A stretch of 64,000 nucleotides of DNA from assembly GCA_965223845.1 (NCBI GenBank), contig CBDCXR010000004.1, forward strand, positions 7,805,200 to 7,869,199. The letters run 5' to 3'. This document shows positions 54,948-61,172 of this stretch, one piece after another. Positions within the stretch are counted from its first letter, which is position 1. The number at the start of each line of letters is the position of its first letter. The stretch is from Planctomycetota bacterium. Lineage in GTDB: Bacteria > Planctomycetota > UBA8108 > SXIK01. The notes beneath the pieces are model-generated. The model did not search any database. It saw only the letters and a program-made list of their open reading frames with translations, and was not told where the DNA came from. The position numbers and the translations under genes are program-made.

Positions 54948-56039
54948 TCAGCGACCGACGAGAGCGTCAGCGTTCGAGAGCGACCGCACGATCGTCCCCG
55001 CGAGAGTCTGCGCGGTTCGAGGCGCGAGCAAGATACCGTTGCGGAAGTGTCCGGTCGCGACGAAGGACCCGCGCGGACCGAACGGGCCGACCGTCGGAAG
55101 CGTGCTTTCGCCGCGCGGCCGGAGTCCGGCCCAGGCCTCGACGAGTTTCGTGGAGCGGAGTCCCGGGCAGAACTCGGCGGCTCGAGTTTGAAGATCGTCG
55201 ATCGCAGTGCGTTCGACGGTCTTGTCGAAACCCTTTTCTTCGACCGTCGTTCCGATGACGATCCGTCCGTCGCCGCGCGGGACGATGTAGGTGAGGTGCG
55301 AATAGATGACGTGGGTCGGAAGAAGAACGTCGCCCTGTTCCTGGGTCGACTCGAGTAGCAGCATTTGACCCTTCACCGGTCGAGCGGGCACCGAGGCGCC
55401 GTCGACTTCGACCTCGCTCGCCCACGCGCCGGCGCAGTTGACGACGACGTCGGCGGGGATGCCTTCTCCGTCGCTCGTTCGAACCCCGGTGACGCGACCG
55501 CCCCGAACGATCACTTCGCGCGCGGACACACCGGAGCGGATCTCGACTCGACGGCGACCCGAGGCGGCGACGAGCGCCTCAGCGAGTGCACGGTTGTCGA
55601 CGCTCCCTTCTTCGGAGTAGAAGAGCGCGGCCGTGACGGATGGGGCCAAGCTCGGCTCGACGCTCTCGAGCTCGTCGGGACGAAGGAGCCGGGCACCGGC
55701 CGGAACCTCGATTTGCTCGGCTGCCTCGATTGGCGAGATGATTCCGTTCAAACGAAGGCCGACATCGATCTCCGTTTCGTGCTCGAGCTCGCGCACATAC
55801 TCCGGATAGATCCGCAGCGCCTCTCGTCCGAGAGCCGCCAGTTCCGGCGCTTCGTGCGACTCGAGTCGCGGCGCCAGCATCCCTGCGGCCGCGCGCGTCG
55901 CCTCGCCGGCCGGCTGGGCCCGCTCGAGCACCGTGACGCGGAATTTCCCGCACAGAGGGGAGGCACCCGCGAGCTCGCGCGCGATCGCGAGGCCGACGAT
56001 GCCGCCGCCGACGATAATCACTCTCGGACCGGATTCCAT
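54948..56039 (-). CDS. thiO: Glycine oxidase ThiO
   Basis: GGGIVG, ATRAAAGMLAP, PVKGQM, YIVPR.DG, WAGLRP, ATGHFRNGILLAP. Confidence 0.88.
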   Translation of the reverse strand: MESGPRVIIVGGGIVGLAIARELAGASPLCGKFRVTVLERAQPAGEATRAAAGMLAPRLESHEAPELAALGREALRIYPEYVRELEHETEIDVGLRLNGIISPIEAAEQIEVPAGARLLRPDELESVEPSLAPSVTAALFYSEEGSVDNRALAEALVAASGRRRVEIRSGVSAREVIVRGGRVTGVRTSDGEGIPADVVVNCAGAWASEVEVDGASVPARPVKGQMLLLESTQEQGDVLLPTHVIYSHLTYIVPRGDGRIVIGTTVEEKGFDKTVERTAIDDLQTRAAEFCPGLRSTKLVEAWAGLRPRGESTLPTVGPFGPRGSFVATGHFRNGILLAPRTAQTLAGTIVRSLSNADALVGR

Positions 56040-56253: not shown

Positions 56254-57798
56254 CTAACCCTTCGGGCAGGCTACCATCCGCCGCGCTCGCGCGAAGTGGA
56301 AATCCTTCAGCGTCTGCTCCTTGTTGTGGCAGACGAGGCAGTCTTTGCGCGTGATTCGACCGAACCGATGCTGCTTCGGATCATCGACGTGCTGCGGATT
56401 TGTCCCGTGGCACGATTCGCATTGTACGTTCGCGTACACTCCGGCGTTCGTCACGTCGAGGAACGCCTTCCCGTATCCGAGCGTATGGCACCCGATGCAG
56501 TCGAAACGGCGGTGGTTGTTCTCTCGCTCGAGTGACGCCATCGCGACCGCATGTTTCGTTCCTTTCCACCACTCGTACTGTTTCTCGTGGCAGCCCTGGC
56601 ACTTCGCGGCCGTCAAGTAGTCCGCGCGGTGGGGAAGCTCCGCTTCGCCCGCTTTCACGCTCGCGAGGTCGACGTTGTTCTTCCAGGCCTCGACGAGTTG
56701 GTCGATTTCCGGGTCGGTGAGGTGGTGGGGTTCGATCGACGTGATCTGGAAGTCGAACTCGTTTCGCTCGCGGAGCTCTGCGAGCTTCGCTCGGTCGGCC
56801 TCCGTCGCGTTCGGCGTCTTGACGAGATCTTCGAGGTCGGCGAGATCGGCCCAGTGAACAAGGGGTTTCCCGGAACGGGTCATCTCGATGTCGAGGCATC
56901 CGAGTCGCGCGCCTTGGCCGTCACCGCGGAGGAAGACGGTGTCTTTCCGCGTCGAGAGCCACTCGTCCTTCTTGATCCACGTGTGTGGATTCCCGTACTG
57001 GATGTAGGGATCGATCAGAATCTGCACTTCTGGGAATGCGTCCGCGAGCTCGCGGTTGACCTCCTCGCGAAGGTGCGAGAGAGCGACGATGAGGTCGACC
57101 TTCCCTTTGAGCTCGGCGAGTGACTTCGCGAGGGCATCCTTCGGGCTCTCGACGCGCGTGCCGGGGGCCACCTTGCCGAGGAAGACCTTGCTCATCGACT
57201 CGAGAGTGAGCCCGATCACGCCGACGCGCACGCCGCCGACCGTTTCGACGATGTGCGGCTCGAAGAGCAGCTCCCCGGTCTTCGCGTCGACGAGATTCGC
57301 CGACAGGAGCTCGAACTTCGCTTTCTTCTCGAGGTCGCGCAGCGCATCCAGTCCACCCGCGAGCTCAAACGGACCGACCGCCATCGCGCGGTAGCCCATG
57401 CGGTTGTACGCCTCGACGATCACCGCAGCCTTGCGGATCGCCTCAGCGCGCTCCGCGTCCTTAACGCGATCGCCGACCTTGTAGAGCGAGCTCCCGCCGT
57501 CGAGAAGAAGGATCTCCCGACCGGTTGCGCGAATCTGGCGAAGGAAGCTCGCTCGGCGCGTGAGACTCCCCTGACGCACTTCCTTGTGCTTACAACCGCA
57601 GACATCGATGTAGCCGGAGTTGTTCACATTGTAGATCAACGTGAACTTCTTCGCGGCCGCATCGGAAGGGGCCGCGGTCTCATCCGGAACGGCCGGCGCA
57701 CCGGTCGCGCTCGCGCCGTCACTCCACGCAAACACTCCGATCAGAGATCCCGCACCGAGGACGGCGCACAGCGCGCGAGCCGCGACACACTTGGACAT
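56254..57798 (-). CDS. Secreted UshA-like (CGC) domain + tetraheme cytochrome c; Cys paralogue
   Basis: Signal peptide; YNVNNSGYIDVCGC..GSLTRRA..LLDGGS; CQGCH, CIGCH, CESCH, CLVCH. Confidence 0.88.
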   Translation of the reverse strand: MSKCVAARALCAVLGAGSLIGVFAWSDGASATGAPAVPDETAAPSDAAAKKFTLIYNVNNSGYIDVCGCKHKEVRQGSLTRRASFLRQIRATGREILLLDGGSSLYKVGDRVKDAERAEAIRKAAVIVEAYNRMGYRAMAVGPFELAGGLDALRDLEKKAKFELLSANLVDAKTGELLFEPHIVETVGGVRVGVIGLTLESMSKVFLGKVAPGTRVESPKDALAKSLAELKGKVDLIVALSHLREEVNRELADAFPEVQILIDPYIQYGNPHTWIKKDEWLSTRKDTVFLRGDGQGARLGCLDIEMTRSGKPLVHWADLADLEDLVKTPNATEADRAKLAELRERNEFDFQITSIEPHHLTDPEIDQLVEAWKNNVDLASVKAGEAELPHRADYLTAAKCQGCHEKQYEWWKGTKHAVAMASLERENNHRRFDCIGCHTLGYGKAFLDVTNAGVYANVQCESCHGTNPQHVDDPKQHRFGRITRKDCLVCHNKEQTLKDFHFARARRMVACPKG

Positions 57799-57827: not shown

Positions 57828-59276
57828 TCACTCCGGCTTCATCTTCGGACAGGAAACCTTGTCGATCGTCTCCGTGTAGCTGAACTGCTTTTGCGTGTAT
57901 TCGGGGTTGTGGCAGCCCCAGCACACTCCGTCGGAGACCTCGCCGAAGCGGTACGCGCGGGGGTTTGTGGCGTGCTTCGGCTCGATGCCGTGGCAGTTCT
58001 CGCACTGAACCTCTTTGAACGACTGCGCTTCAATGGGGCGCGTGTACGCGATTCCGTACCCGAGCGTGTGACAGCCGATGCAGTCGGTGCGCTCCGTCGC
58101 GCCGATCGGAACGAGCGTCTCGAAGTTGTTCGCATGGCGGGTCGACTTCCAGAACTGATCCTGCTCCTCGTGGCAGGCGGCGCAGGCCTCGGCTCCGGCG
58201 AGCTCCTCGATCGGGAACCGCTCACTGGGGTCGAAGTTCGCCGGAAGCTCGAACTTGCCGCCGCGCCTCACGAGTTTCATGAGGTCGGACATGGCGGGGT
58301 GGTCCATGATGTGCGGCTCGAGCGCGACGTTGTACCCCTCGTAGCTCGAGTACTTCTTCGTCGCGGGGTCGATCGTCATCTCGAACACGCCGACGCGTGC
58401 TCCCTGGCCGTCGATACGAAGTCGCGGTGTCCCGTGGATCTCACGGCAGTAGTCCTCGTCCCCGGAGACCCAAATCAGCTTCGATCCGAAGCGAGCGAGC
58501 GGGTCGACCATCGCATCGATGTCCGGGTTCTTCGCCAGGATCTCCGTATTCGTTTTCTCGAAGCAGTGGGAGAGTGCGATCACGATGTCGCTCTTCTCCT
58601 TGAGCTCCGCGACCACTCGCTCCGAAACGACACGGGGATCGAGGATCTCACCGTCGGGGATCACGCGCCGCGCGAAGTTCGGGTTGACGCGCTCCTGAAT
58701 GACCGCGTAGATCCCGAAGCGCACACCGCCGACCTCTTTGATGATGTACGGCTGGAAGTAGGGCTTCTTCGTCGCCTTGTCGACGAGGTTGGCGCAGAGT
58801 AGCGGAAACCGCGCATCGCGCGCGAGCCGCTGGAGACTGTCGAGCCCGAGCTGAAGGTCCTGCGGTCCGACGGCGACCGCGTCGTAGCCGAACACGTTGT
58901 ACGCGTTGAGGATCACCATCGCGTCGAGCCAAGCCCGACGTTCTTCGGTTCGGTCCGGCGCCTTGTTGGTCGCGATGCGGAAGAAAGTATCGCCGCCATC
59001 GACGAGCAGCACGGGGCGATCGAGTCCCCGGAGCTGCTGGAGATAGGTCATGCGTCTAGGCAAACTGCCTAGCTTGATCTTTTTCTTCGGTCACCCGCAG
59101 GTCTTTAGGTAGCCGACATTGTTCACCGTATACGCGAGAAAGATCTTCTCCGCGGGTTTCGGCGGCGTCGCGGGGACGGCAAACCCCCAGCGCGCAGCAG
59201 CGATCGTCGCCGCGAGGGCCACGATCCCGGCGAGGAGCTTCGGCGCCGGACGAGTGATCAAGAGTATGGTGGGCAT
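57828..59276 (-). CDS. Selenoprotein: secreted UshA-like (CGU) domain + tetraheme cytochrome c, 482 aa, Sec at TGA 59091-59093
   Basis: ORFs 59091..60104 and 57828..59063 are one frame: YTVNNVGYLKTCG-U-PKKKIKLGSLPRRMTYL aligns without gaps to paralogue CGC; CAACH, CIGCH, CENCH, CWGCH. Confidence 0.9.
59056..59072 (-). promoter_or_regulatory. Candidate bacterial SECIS element
   Basis: CTAGGCA-GTT-TGCCTAG perfect hairpin starting 18 nt after the UGA, loop begins GU; built from codons atypical for a high-GC genome (CTA, AGT, TTG, CCT, AGA). Confidence 0.75.
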
Positions 59277-59380: not shown

Positions 59381-60577
59381 TCAAACCTCGAGGCAAGACG
59401 CGGCGCAGCCCGAGTCGCCCGGCTCTTCTTCGGCCGGTGCACCCGGAGTCGCCGCACCGTGAGCGACCTGAAGCATGTACGCGACGTCCTCGACGTCCAG
59501 TTTGCCGTCGGAGTTCGGGTCCGTCGGGCACGGCGCGTCCTCGGTGGGACGAACGGTCGATTCTCCAGGATCGGCCTCGGAGCGCAACAGCCTGGACGCG
59601 AGGAAATATCCGACGCGGAGCTGTTGCTCGACCGCGGCGCTCGGCTTGATGCGAACCACGTAGACGTGAGCCCGACGAGTGCCGTGAAGCAAGATCGCGC
59701 GAACGCGCGGAGTCGAGCTGTACGTGTGGATGGCCTCGCAATCCGTGTCGGTCGCTGCGTCGAGCGGGAGCGACACCGCGAGCGGCGGCCCCAGCCGACA
59801 CGAAACCGGCTGAGTGCTCGGGCCATCGCTTCCCGGGCGCCGGCAGAGGAACATGTCGCTCGGGAGCTCGTCGGGACGCGTGGTGGAGAGGCTGGCGAGA
59901 GTGACGGCAGGCTCGGTACGAGCCGTGCTCGATCGGCTGGCGAGGACGGTGCCTTCGTCGACCATCGCGAGATCCGTCGGAATGCGTTCCTCGACAAGAC
60001 CCTTCGCCGAGCGCGGTGGCTCCGTTTCGAGCGCGCTCGAAACGGCGGCGCGTGCGGTCGCATCGTCCGGGGCGGACGCGACGATCGGAGACTCGTTCCA
60101 CCACTCGGGGCGCGAAGAGAACGTCCAGACACCCGCGGCGGCGATGACCGCCGCGGCTGCGGCCGCGATCCAGGCGGAACCGCCGCGACCGATGCGCGCC
60201 CCGACGCGCTCGAATTCCGTGCGCGCCGCGGGAGCGGATTCCGATTCGATCGCGGAGCGAACTTTACCGGCGAACCGCTCGGAGAGCGCCGGACTGTCGA
60301 GGAGTGACTCGACGAGCCAGAGCCGCTCGACGTCGAGCTGCTCCTTCCGATCGGCGCACGAACGACAAGACGCCAGGTGTTCGGCGATGCGCCGCGAACG
60401 GATCGGATCGATCTCGCCTTCGACGTAACGGTGAAGGAGCGGGACGACCGACGTACAGTTGGTTTCGTCCCGGCTCGCGGAACCCTCTATGAGTTCGTCG
60501 CCGCGCGTCGCCGCGGCGTGAACGTCATTCTGCGTCACCGGATCGTGACTGGATTCGTTCTCTCGTGAGCTGTTCAT
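59381..60577 (-). CDS. Zinc-binding anti-sigma factor (zf-HC2) with TM helix and extracytoplasmic domain
   Basis: YVEGEI..HLASCRSC, TM WIAAAAAAVIAAAGVW, C-terminal DPNSDGKLDVED loop; follows ECF sigma. Confidence 0.82.
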   Translation of the reverse strand: MNSSRENESSHDPVTQNDVHAAATRGDELIEGSASRDETNCTSVVPLLHRYVEGEIDPIRSRRIAEHLASCRSCADRKEQLDVERLWLVESLLDSPALSERFAGKVRSAIESESAPAARTEFERVGARIGRGGSAWIAAAAAAVIAAAGVWTFSSRPEWWNESPIVASAPDDATARAAVSSALETEPPRSAKGLVEERIPTDLAMVDEGTVLASRSSTARTEPAVTLASLSTTRPDELPSDMFLCRRPGSDGPSTQPVSCRLGPPLAVSLPLDAATDTDCEAIHTYSSTPRVRAILLHGTRRAHVYVVRIKPSAAVEQQLRVGYFLASRLLRSEADPGESTVRPTEDAPCPTDPNSDGKLDVEDVAYMLQVAHGAATPGAPAEEEPGDSGCAASCLEV

Positions 60578-60590
60578 CGCTTTCTACGCT

Positions 60591-61172
60591 CTACACTCGC
60601 TCTTCCCGCTCGACCGAACCTCGAAGCAGTTGCTTCCCCTTTCGGATCAGGTAGTCGATCCGATTGCTGTTGATTCCGAGCCTCTCCTCGATCTCTCGGT
60701 AGCTGAGCCCTTCGAGGTATTTCATGCGCAGAACATCGCGAACCTCCGGCGGCAGCTTTCGCATGAACTCGGACGCCGCGCTCAGGTCCGAGCTGCCGAG
60801 CGCCGGCGTCGCGCGTGCGCGACGCTCGCGCTGCCGTTCGTCCCGCCGAGCGCGTTCCCGGAGCTCGTCGAACTTGACCACCTTGATCCGCTCGCGCTGA
60901 AACCACTTGTGGCACCGGTTGTAGGCGATGCCGAACAACCAGCTCGAAAAGTTCTCCGGCGCCTGCAGCGAGTCGAGCGCCCGAAACGCCGCGAGGAAGA
61001 TGTCCTGCGTCAAGTCTTCGGCGTCGAAGTAGTTTTTGCTCTTGTAGAGCGCGACGTTGAAGACCGACTGCTGAAACTCCTCGACGAGAGCCTCGAAGGC
61101 GTCCAAGTCACCTCGCCGCGCTCGGTGGACGAGGGCGGTGATCTCCGATCGCTCGGCGCGCGGTTCACTCAT
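60591..61172 (-). CDS. ECF RNA polymerase sigma factor
   Basis: GDLDAFEALV, DAEDLTQDIFL, FSSWLFGIAYN, YLEGLSYREI. Confidence 0.92.
   Translation of the reverse strand: MSEPRAERSEITALVHRARRGDLDAFEALVEEFQQSVFNVALYKSKNYFDAEDLTQDIFLAAFRALDSLQAPENFSSWLFGIAYNRCHKWFQRERIKVVKFDELRERARRDERQRERRARATPALGSSDLSAASEFMRKLPPEVRDVLRMKYLEGLSYREIEERLGINSNRIDYLIRKGKQLLRGSVEREERV

Follow-up and report, generated by a model that had tools for sequence, protein, structure and literature searches.

A family of predicted selenoproteins labelled 'COG0737, UshA-like' and carrying a Cys-x-Sec motif (CxU; Sec or U, selenocysteine) was described with 76 sequences in the Global Ocean Sampling (GOS) analysis of 2008 (PMC2398784), and it appears again in two later review tables (PMC9312934 and PMC13188914). 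The entries for the family in these three publications give no function for it. Literature searches found no functional study of the family, and the terms UshA, nucleotidase and cytochrome c are all absent from the main text of PMC4807772. Catalogued since 2008, it is a large family with members in many phyla. Periplasmic c-type cytochromes with Sec have also been tabulated, among them ExtKL (NF040886) and a Sec-containing octahaem tetrathionate reductase family (PMC13188914). Here we describe a gene, gene A, in a stretch of 64,000 nucleotides (the window) from a planctomycete genome (GCA_965223845.1, contig CBDCXR010000004.1, positions 7,805,200 to 7,869,199), which very probably encodes a genuine UshA-like selenoprotein, a judgement that covers the identity of the protein and not its chemistry. 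Gene A lies directly upstream of gene B, a paralogue with Cys in place of Sec, and both stand behind the genes for an extracytoplasmic function (ECF) sigma factor and its anti-sigma factor.

An in-frame TGA at codon 62 of gene A

Gene A becomes a single open frame once the TGA at codon 62 is read through (Table 1). The text around this codon is YTVNNVGYLKTCG-TGA-PKKKIKLGSLPRRMTYLQQLR or, with a longer left flank, AYTVNNVGYLKTCG-TGA-PKKKIKLGSLPRRMTYLQQLR. Standard open reading frame (ORF) calling splits the gene, as a preliminary description made from the letters of the window alone had recognised, into a 411-residue ORF from 59063 and an upstream ORF that ends at the TGA. The protein database likewise holds a 407-residue product (P0003), identical over 84% of the read-through protein, and 36 further close relatives deposited there span only 62–85% of the gene A product. 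Public gene calls thus truncate the gene A protein, so that its signal peptide and its Sec site are both absent from annotation. Cys forms of the protein are single full-length ORFs, in line with the early view that the N- and C-terminal halves belong to one gene, and the signal peptide proposed at that stage corresponds to a hydrophobic stretch that could serve either as signal peptide or as membrane anchor.

The TGA is kept in relatives of the window. Four planctomycete metagenome-assembled genome (MAG) loci found with the gene A protein have TGA at the same codon (4/4), and their flanking peptide is conserved. In a parsed set of A/B loci, made up of the window, 19 loci from related genomes and three of these MAG loci (23 parsed, 22 distinct), TGA occupies the codon 62 position in all 23 A genes, with the peptide conserved on both sides, and TGC or TGT occupies the aligned position in all 23 B genes. 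Because the upstream gene has TGA and the downstream gene Cys at every one of these loci, the TGA lies beyond chance. The preliminary description had noticed in the window that the TGA falls exactly at a Cys of the paralogue, and the same position is Cys in other homologues. We also searched 41 genomes of the same class with NF041198, the curated 'UshA-like (seleno)protein' model; all counts from this search are among the matches listed, with 194 weaker matches outside them. A TGA-bearing N-terminal match was found in 35 of the 41. Across 84 site-bearing matches from 69 loci in many phyla, the site codon is TGA in 44, TGC in 30 and TGT in 10.

The host genome (7.93 Mb, four contigs) encodes tRNA-Sec, SelA, SelB and SelD, all above curated cut-offs, which agrees with the selenoprotein reading of the preliminary description. 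The tRNA-Sec, with anticodon TCA, scores 68.1 bits against a gathering score of 47, and SelA, SelB and SelD match at 536, 352.7 and 307.8 bits, respectively. SelD itself is a 784-residue fusion (G000:C4:5317241-5318161, or L017:1393-3744, minus strand) in which a PF07992 pyridine nucleotide-disulfide oxidoreductase domain at residues 40–333 lies N-terminal to the AIRS/AIRS_C selenophosphate synthetase part; the active-site residue of this SelD is Cys, not Sec, and its gene has no in-frame stop. Three sequencing runs, all from one sample that may itself be the source of the window, have contigs that match the stretch with 0 differences, which lends weak support to the assembled sequence; a fourth run covers 2 of the 30 bins of the stretch.

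Shortly after the TGA comes a hairpin of the selenocysteine insertion sequence (SECIS) type. The preliminary description had called it perfect and made of atypical codons; it is both, and it is conserved. By usage in six local genes, five of its six codons are rare: CTA and TTG account for 1.5% and 5.9% of Leu codons, AGT for 6.1% of Ser, CCT for 4.1% of Pro and AGA for 2.1% of Arg codons. Over 21 aligned A genes, 95.2% of the 147 cells of the 7-bp stem are paired, compared with 22–51% when the 3' arm is slid. Pair 24–36 is compensatory (G-C in 14 genes, C-G in 5, A-U in 1 and G-U in 1), and two pairs show changes from G-C to G-U or U-G. The covariation score of 0.207, against 0.100 ± 0.018 in shuffles, was reached by none of 500 shuffles, and we regard covariation as moderate support, drawn from sequence comparison, for SECIS function. 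Three A sequences have a shifted stem register with a 6-nt loop. The Cys paralogues (B genes) lack this hairpin at the corresponding position, and there is no SECIS-type hairpin after the true stop of gene A. A loop 25 nt after the UGA with G at its first position agrees with the bacterial SECIS rules (bSECISearch). SelB with Sec-tRNA(Sec) would bind this GUU-loop hairpin, and Sec would then be inserted at codon 62. We accordingly read TGA-62, on comparative grounds, as the selenocysteine codon of a conserved reading frame.

A predicted phosphatase-type fold with a Cys-Gly-Sec loop and four haems

NF041198 (UshA_like_PCGU) matches the gene A protein at E 1.3e-78, over model positions 12–272 and 344–518 of 519. 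This match takes in the two halves of the model, and the haem tail is thus already part of the curated family. UshA and SoxB models match the N-terminal domain more weakly. Within gene A, PF13435 (Cytochrome_C554) scores 46.7 bits against a gathering threshold of 20.8, and related haem families are also matched; PF00149 (Metallophos) and PF02872 (5'-nucleotidase C-terminal) gave no Pfam match at E <= 0.01. A search of the PDB with a profile built from 34 sequences of the two genes A and B returned 5'-nucleotidases (E ~1e-21), the cytochrome OcwA (3.3e-15), cytochrome c554 (4.5e-12) and SoxB (~7e-9). The AlphaFold model of the gene A protein has pLDDT 80.4 and pTM 0.80, and its top Foldseek matches are to Escherichia coli UshA (E ~1e-18). 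These matches substantiate the UshA-like N-terminal domain and the cytochrome c554-like C-terminal domain that had been proposed before any search was run, and the four C-terminal CxxCH motifs of that proposal are all present (Table 1).

In 5'-nucleotidases the dimetal and catalytic residues, as assigned in UshA, lie in the motifs DxH, GD, GNHE, H and GHxH. At the aligned positions gene A reads GPQD for GNHE, DP for GGH and NNVG for motif I; another aligned metal or catalytic motif reads DGGD, of which the last Asp varies across the family. In 73 full-length family members, C60, G61 and U/C62 are invariant (73/73), and the further invariants are G55, G70, R74 (93%), D93 (85–100%), G95 and N163. 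The four CxxCH motifs together with H381 and H435, the only two such His outside CxxCH, are invariant family-wide in the same set. The Cys-Gly-Sec (CGU) loop comes just after the first strand, beside G70, R74, D93, G95 and N163. Position 53 is Asn in the planctomycete clade and Asp in most other phyla (as in TTDVKG and GADIHG). In gene A the phosphatase fold is therefore disarmed, has a new Cys-Gly-Sec loop next to basic residues and is fused to a predicted four-haem wire. The signal or anchor helix, and the fact that c-type haems must mature in the periplasm, lead us to infer that the protein is exported.

Table 1. Positions in the window of gene A, its parts and the neighbouring genes
Feature	Position	Strand	Remarks
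Gene A, selenoprotein gene	59276..57828	minus	single open frame once TGA read through; 482 residues
Gene A ATG start	59274..59276	minus	first ATG in the TGA-spanning frame; GAGGA 12 nt upstream
Gene A N-terminal hydrophobic helix, residues 12-31	59184..59243	minus	signal peptide or membrane anchor; helix in AlphaFold model
Gene A 5'-nucleotidase (UshA)-type calcineurin-like domain, residues ~43-340	58257..59150	minus	NF041198, PDB profile, Foldseek
Gene A Cys60-Gly61-Sec62 motif	59091..59099	minus	TGA codon 62 at 59093-59091
SECIS-type hairpin CTAGGCA-GTT-TGCCTAG	59056..59072	minus	7-bp perfect stem, GUU loop, start 18 nt after TGA
Gene A cytochrome c554-like domain	57831..58199	minus	PF13435, PDB profile, four CxxCH
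Gene A CAACH, residues 365-369	58184-58170	minus	
Gene A CIGCH, residues 399-403	58082-58068	minus	
Gene A CENCH, residues 425-429	58004-57990	minus	
Gene A CWGCH, residues 452-456	57923-57909	minus	
Gene A true stop, TGA	57828..57830	minus	gene B start 29 nt further downstream
Gene B, paralogue	56254..57798	minus	same architecture, Cys-Gly-Cys; TGT 57594-57592 aligned with TGA-62
DAO-family FAD oxidoreductase	54948-56039	minus	215 nt downstream of gene B
Anti-sigma factor	59381..60577	minus	zf-HC2 (PF13490), one hydrophobic span, periplasmic tail ending ...GCAASCLEV
ECF-type sigma-70 factor, cluster head	60591..61172	minus	Sigma70_r2, Sigma70_r4_2, Sigma70_ECF

The Sec/Cys tandem and its neighbourhood

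Gene B reads YNVNNSGYIDVCGCKHKEVRQGSLTRRASFLRQIR around the site, within the wider text VCGCKHKEVRQGSLTRR, and is 36% identical to gene A in the alignment; its NF041198 score of 299.5 bits is above the cut-off of 275. Gene A lies directly upstream of gene B in 30 of the 41 class genomes. Elsewhere A is cut at a contig edge (two genomes, G004 and G040), stands alone on a 4-kb contig (one, G017) or is on a different contig from B (four, G022, G024, G026 and G028), three genomes have B only (G007, G009 and G021), and one has neither (G005). Loss of gene A together with the Sec machinery was considered and rejected, as the three B-only genomes keep selA.

Relatives were also sought beyond the class. 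A profile scan of species-representative genomes, from the same collection as the class genomes and overlapping with them, gave 80 loci, of 531 stretches encoding relatives, from Planctomycetota, Eisenbacteria, Acidobacteriota, Latescibacterota, Nitrospirota, Myxococcota, Binatia, Gammaproteobacteria and others. The preliminary description had placed such proteins mainly in Deltaproteobacteria, and this spread over many phyla does not bear that out. In a FastTree phylogeny of 73 sequences (414 columns, midpoint-rooted, all tips within the family), the 14 tips of the A genes, every one with Sec, form a monophyletic clade (support 0.944), and so do the 19 tips of the B genes, every one with Cys (support 0.989). 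These are sister clades (support 0.996), nested among the forms of other phyla (24 Sec, 16 Cys). A and B therefore go back to an old duplication, after which Sec was fixed in A and Cys in B.

Some genomes of the class have a third family member (L071, G022:C11, at ~7056 on the minus strand; also G024:C144). This type reads EPCG-TGA-...GGLARR and has a frame of ~710 residues with an extra N-terminal region. An Eisenbacteria MAG locus (L135) has three members on one strand, with sites at 868, 3673 and 5081; the middle one is a Sec form between two Cys forms, and the third has only two CxxCH motifs. Since this locus holds three members, multiplication of the family is not confined to Planctomycetota.

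The genes for the sigma factor, the anti-sigma factor, A and B follow in this order on one strand, and the sigma gene is upstream in 21 of 23 relatives' loci, where anti-sigma homologues were matched by tblastn. A second sample of loci has an ECF sigma gene upstream in all 13 tandem loci as well as in two B-only loci (L091 and L093); with the sigma-factor query used, none of its 61 non-A/B-type loci had one within 4 kb. A C-terminal Cys pair (Cx3-5C) is present in the anti-sigma factor in 19 of the 21 upstream ORFs parsed, with tail ends such as ...GCAASCLEV, ...DCDNREPCV and ...LPCLEICP (window; loci L052–L070 and L029–L031). In the remaining two the ORF picked by the script had no such tail, and the L065 locus shows the expected ...LPCQISCP. 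The periplasmic tail of the anti-sigma factor also bears a DxNxDG (EF-hand or dockerin-like) loop. A complex prediction for gene B and the anti-sigma tail, run on the window sequences without alignments, returned 'no answer' (score, 0.00; mark, 0.34). By eye, no conserved block that might be a shared ECF-type promoter was found in the 200-nt upstream stretches of 22 loci. The location of A and B behind an ECF sigma/anti-sigma pair suggests a role in envelope redox stress.

Downstream of gene B, on the same strand, is a gene for a DAO-family flavin adenine dinucleotide (FAD) oxidoreductase. A homologue occurs in 12 of 23 related loci, on the same strand downstream of B where checked, and this may be simple synteny. 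Outside the planctomycetes, an AhpC/TSA peroxiredoxin gene lies immediately upstream of a Sec-form member in Latescibacterota (L102, 3280–3774), and a Thioredoxin_4 (DsbA-like) gene immediately upstream of a family member in Syntrophaceae (L144, 3082–3840). Also nearby in loci of other phyla are genes of cytochrome c maturation or LptD, namely ResB (L100, L118), CcmE/CcmF (L102) and LptD (L123, L130, L131). As pointers to envelope or thiol-redox biology these neighbours are hints only. No sox genes were seen beside gene A or in the inspected loci of other phyla.

Candidate mechanisms and relation to known systems

We give an even chance to the possibility that the gene A protein is a periplasmic oxidoreductase. 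Its Cys/Sec pair would cycle between thiol/selenol and selenenylsulfide, or would hold a small anionic substrate as a sulfur or selenium adduct, and electrons would pass to or from the four haems of the same protein. The selenol site connected to a chain of haems that the preliminary description had proposed is a reasonable suggestion. Gene A would act alongside its Cys-Gly-Cys paralogue B, and the two may be under the control of the ECF sigma system or provide an input to it. For the selenenylsulfide-to-haem step as the mechanism of gene A, our confidence is likewise evenly balanced.

Several results weigh against the identity given to gene A or against the mechanism. With C in place of U, the protein scores 264.8 bits on NF041198, 10 bits short of the cut-off of 275, and because of this score it is filed as a divergent member of the wider family and not as an equivalog. 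The covariation of the hairpin comes from a single pair, three of its seven pairs are invariant and the aligned sequences are related; pairs with changes in both arms are no more numerous than in shuffles (399 of 500 attain that count). The 81-nt region folds like its shuffles (z = 0.01), so that support for the hairpin rests on conservation, and a scan of 58950–59150 against Rfam at E <= 10 found no SECIS family, only chance-level chrB-a and Cyano-2. As to mechanism, the CGU loop is modelled with only moderate confidence (block means 76 and 57), and the neighbours in 14 loci of other phyla are not conserved and point to no substrate.

An alternative that we consider rather unlikely, if the strongest of the competitors, is that Cys60/Sec62 ligates a metal ion or a haem iron in a remodelled dimetal pocket, which would make the protein a Sec-ligated metallo-haem enzyme. 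The scaffold is after all a metal-binding fold, the loop is flanked by the invariant residues D93 and N163, most members outside the planctomycetes have Asp at position 53, and there are just two extra invariant His (H381 and H435) to provide distal ligands for four haems. In the planctomycete clade, however, position 53 is Asn, and the GNHE and GH ligand positions read GPQD and DP. Most selenoproteins with CxU, CxxU or UxxC motifs are, moreover, thiol-type redox proteins, and the published family tables, as far as their motif entries go, list motifs of this kind.

The gene order raises a further alternative, compatible with both the oxidoreductase and the metal-ligand mechanisms, in which A and B are mainly sensory partners of the anti-sigma factor and not metabolic enzymes. 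Redox equivalents would pass between their Cys/Sec sites and the C-terminal Cys pair of the anti-sigma factor, and this exchange would govern how active the ECF sigma factor is. The order of the four genes, shared by 21 of the 23 loci from relatives and by each of the 13 tandem loci, the sigma gene retained upstream of both B-only loci and the Cys pair in 19 of 21 upstream ORFs speak for such a link. On the other hand, none of the 61 non-A/B-type loci has an ECF sigma gene within 4 kb by the query used, and their neighbours are unrelated housekeeping genes; because the family occurs outside the clade without an ECF sigma gene nearby, its ancestral role was not sigma-linked. Adjacency would fit equally well if A and B were simply the regulon, and we judge a mainly sensory role to be doubtful. 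The specific proposal of an envelope redox sensor that depends on selenium and consists of A, B and the anti-sigma factor in this planctomycete class is a long shot. In that scheme the redox state of the periplasm or the respiratory chain would be sensed through the haem chains of A and B, and the CGU and CGC sites would relay it by thiol/selenol–disulfide exchange to the anti-sigma Cys pair, on which the ECF sigma factor would be either set free or kept bound. If true, this would give the UshA-like CxU family its first assigned role and would be the first case of a selenoprotein feeding into an ECF sigma switch.

That gene A encodes a working UshA-type phosphoesterase or nucleotidase with an incidental haem tail is very improbable: homology and fold similarity to UshA, CD73-type 5'-nucleotidases and SoxB favour it, but neither PF00149 nor PF02872 is matched, the aligned metal and catalytic positions are unconserved and a cytochrome stands in place of the substrate-binding C-terminal domain. 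A nonsense mutation or real stop at the TGA, leaving a pseudogene or a small exported peptide plus a cytochrome from 59063, is precisely what standard ORF calling yields (P0003 too), but it is effectively refuted by a TGA kept at one codon in all parsed orthologues with protein sequence conserved across it, by Cys at this position in full-length homologues, by the conserved downstream hairpin, by the Sec machinery of the genome and by the 411-residue ORF having no signal peptide, which a c-type cytochrome needs.

Gene A is therefore both a correction to annotation and a new, slightly divergent member of the known UshA-like CxU family. What is new here is the occurrence of a Sec gene and a Cys gene as ancient sister paralogues in tandem in a planctomycete class, the position of this tandem directly behind an ECF sigma/zf-HC2 anti-sigma pair with a conserved tail Cys pair, and the replacement of most phosphatase metal ligands in gene A. 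A fixed Sec paralogue beside a fixed Cys paralogue offers a natural Sec/Cys comparison for experiments. The dedicated ECF sigma/anti-sigma pair may name the inducing stress, and the Cys pair of the anti-sigma tail is a further experimental handle.

Compared with systems already described, gene A combines parts that are found separately. Like ExtKL and the octahaem tetrathionate reductase family, as these are tabulated, it is predicted to be a periplasmic c-type cytochrome with Sec. There is no sequence relation to these proteins beyond haem motifs (NF040886 matches gene B only, at E 0.0046 and 15.6 bits), and they lack a 5'-nucleotidase-type domain. The tetrahaem module of gene A matches cytochrome c554 of Nitrosomonas (PF13435; 1bvb and 1ft5, of which 1bvb gave the PDB match above) and the c554-like module of OcwA (6i5b); gene A differs from cytochrome c554 in having this module at the C-terminal end of a larger protein that resembles an enzyme. 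SoxB, the di-manganese thiosulfohydrolase of the periplasmic sulfur cycle, has the same fold as the N-terminal domain and is weakly homologous (TIGR04486, E 4.4e-8 for A and 1.7e-15 for B; 4uwq and 2wdc in the PDB search), but A and B score 32–56 bits against a SoxB cut-off of 550, and SoxB has neither haems nor a CxU site.

The N-terminal domain is homologous to E. coli UshA and the CD73-type 5'-nucleotidases (PDB profile E ~1e-20), with a Foldseek template modelling (TM) score of ~0.5 over the gene A query for UshA and an aligned helix start, GG/GS-x-x-RR. It differs from them in lacking their metal and catalytic motifs, in the Cys-Gly-Sec loop inserted after the first strand and in the tetrahaem cytochrome that replaces their nucleotide-binding C-terminal domain. 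Gene A is closest to NF041198, a family that mixes Sec and Cys forms and shares both its two-half architecture and its Cys-Gly-Sec/Cys site. It differs in its motif, which is TCGU and not PCGU, and, with respect to the members sampled from other phyla, in the duplicated Sec/Cys pair and the link to an ECF sigma factor, which we saw in the planctomycete clade only.

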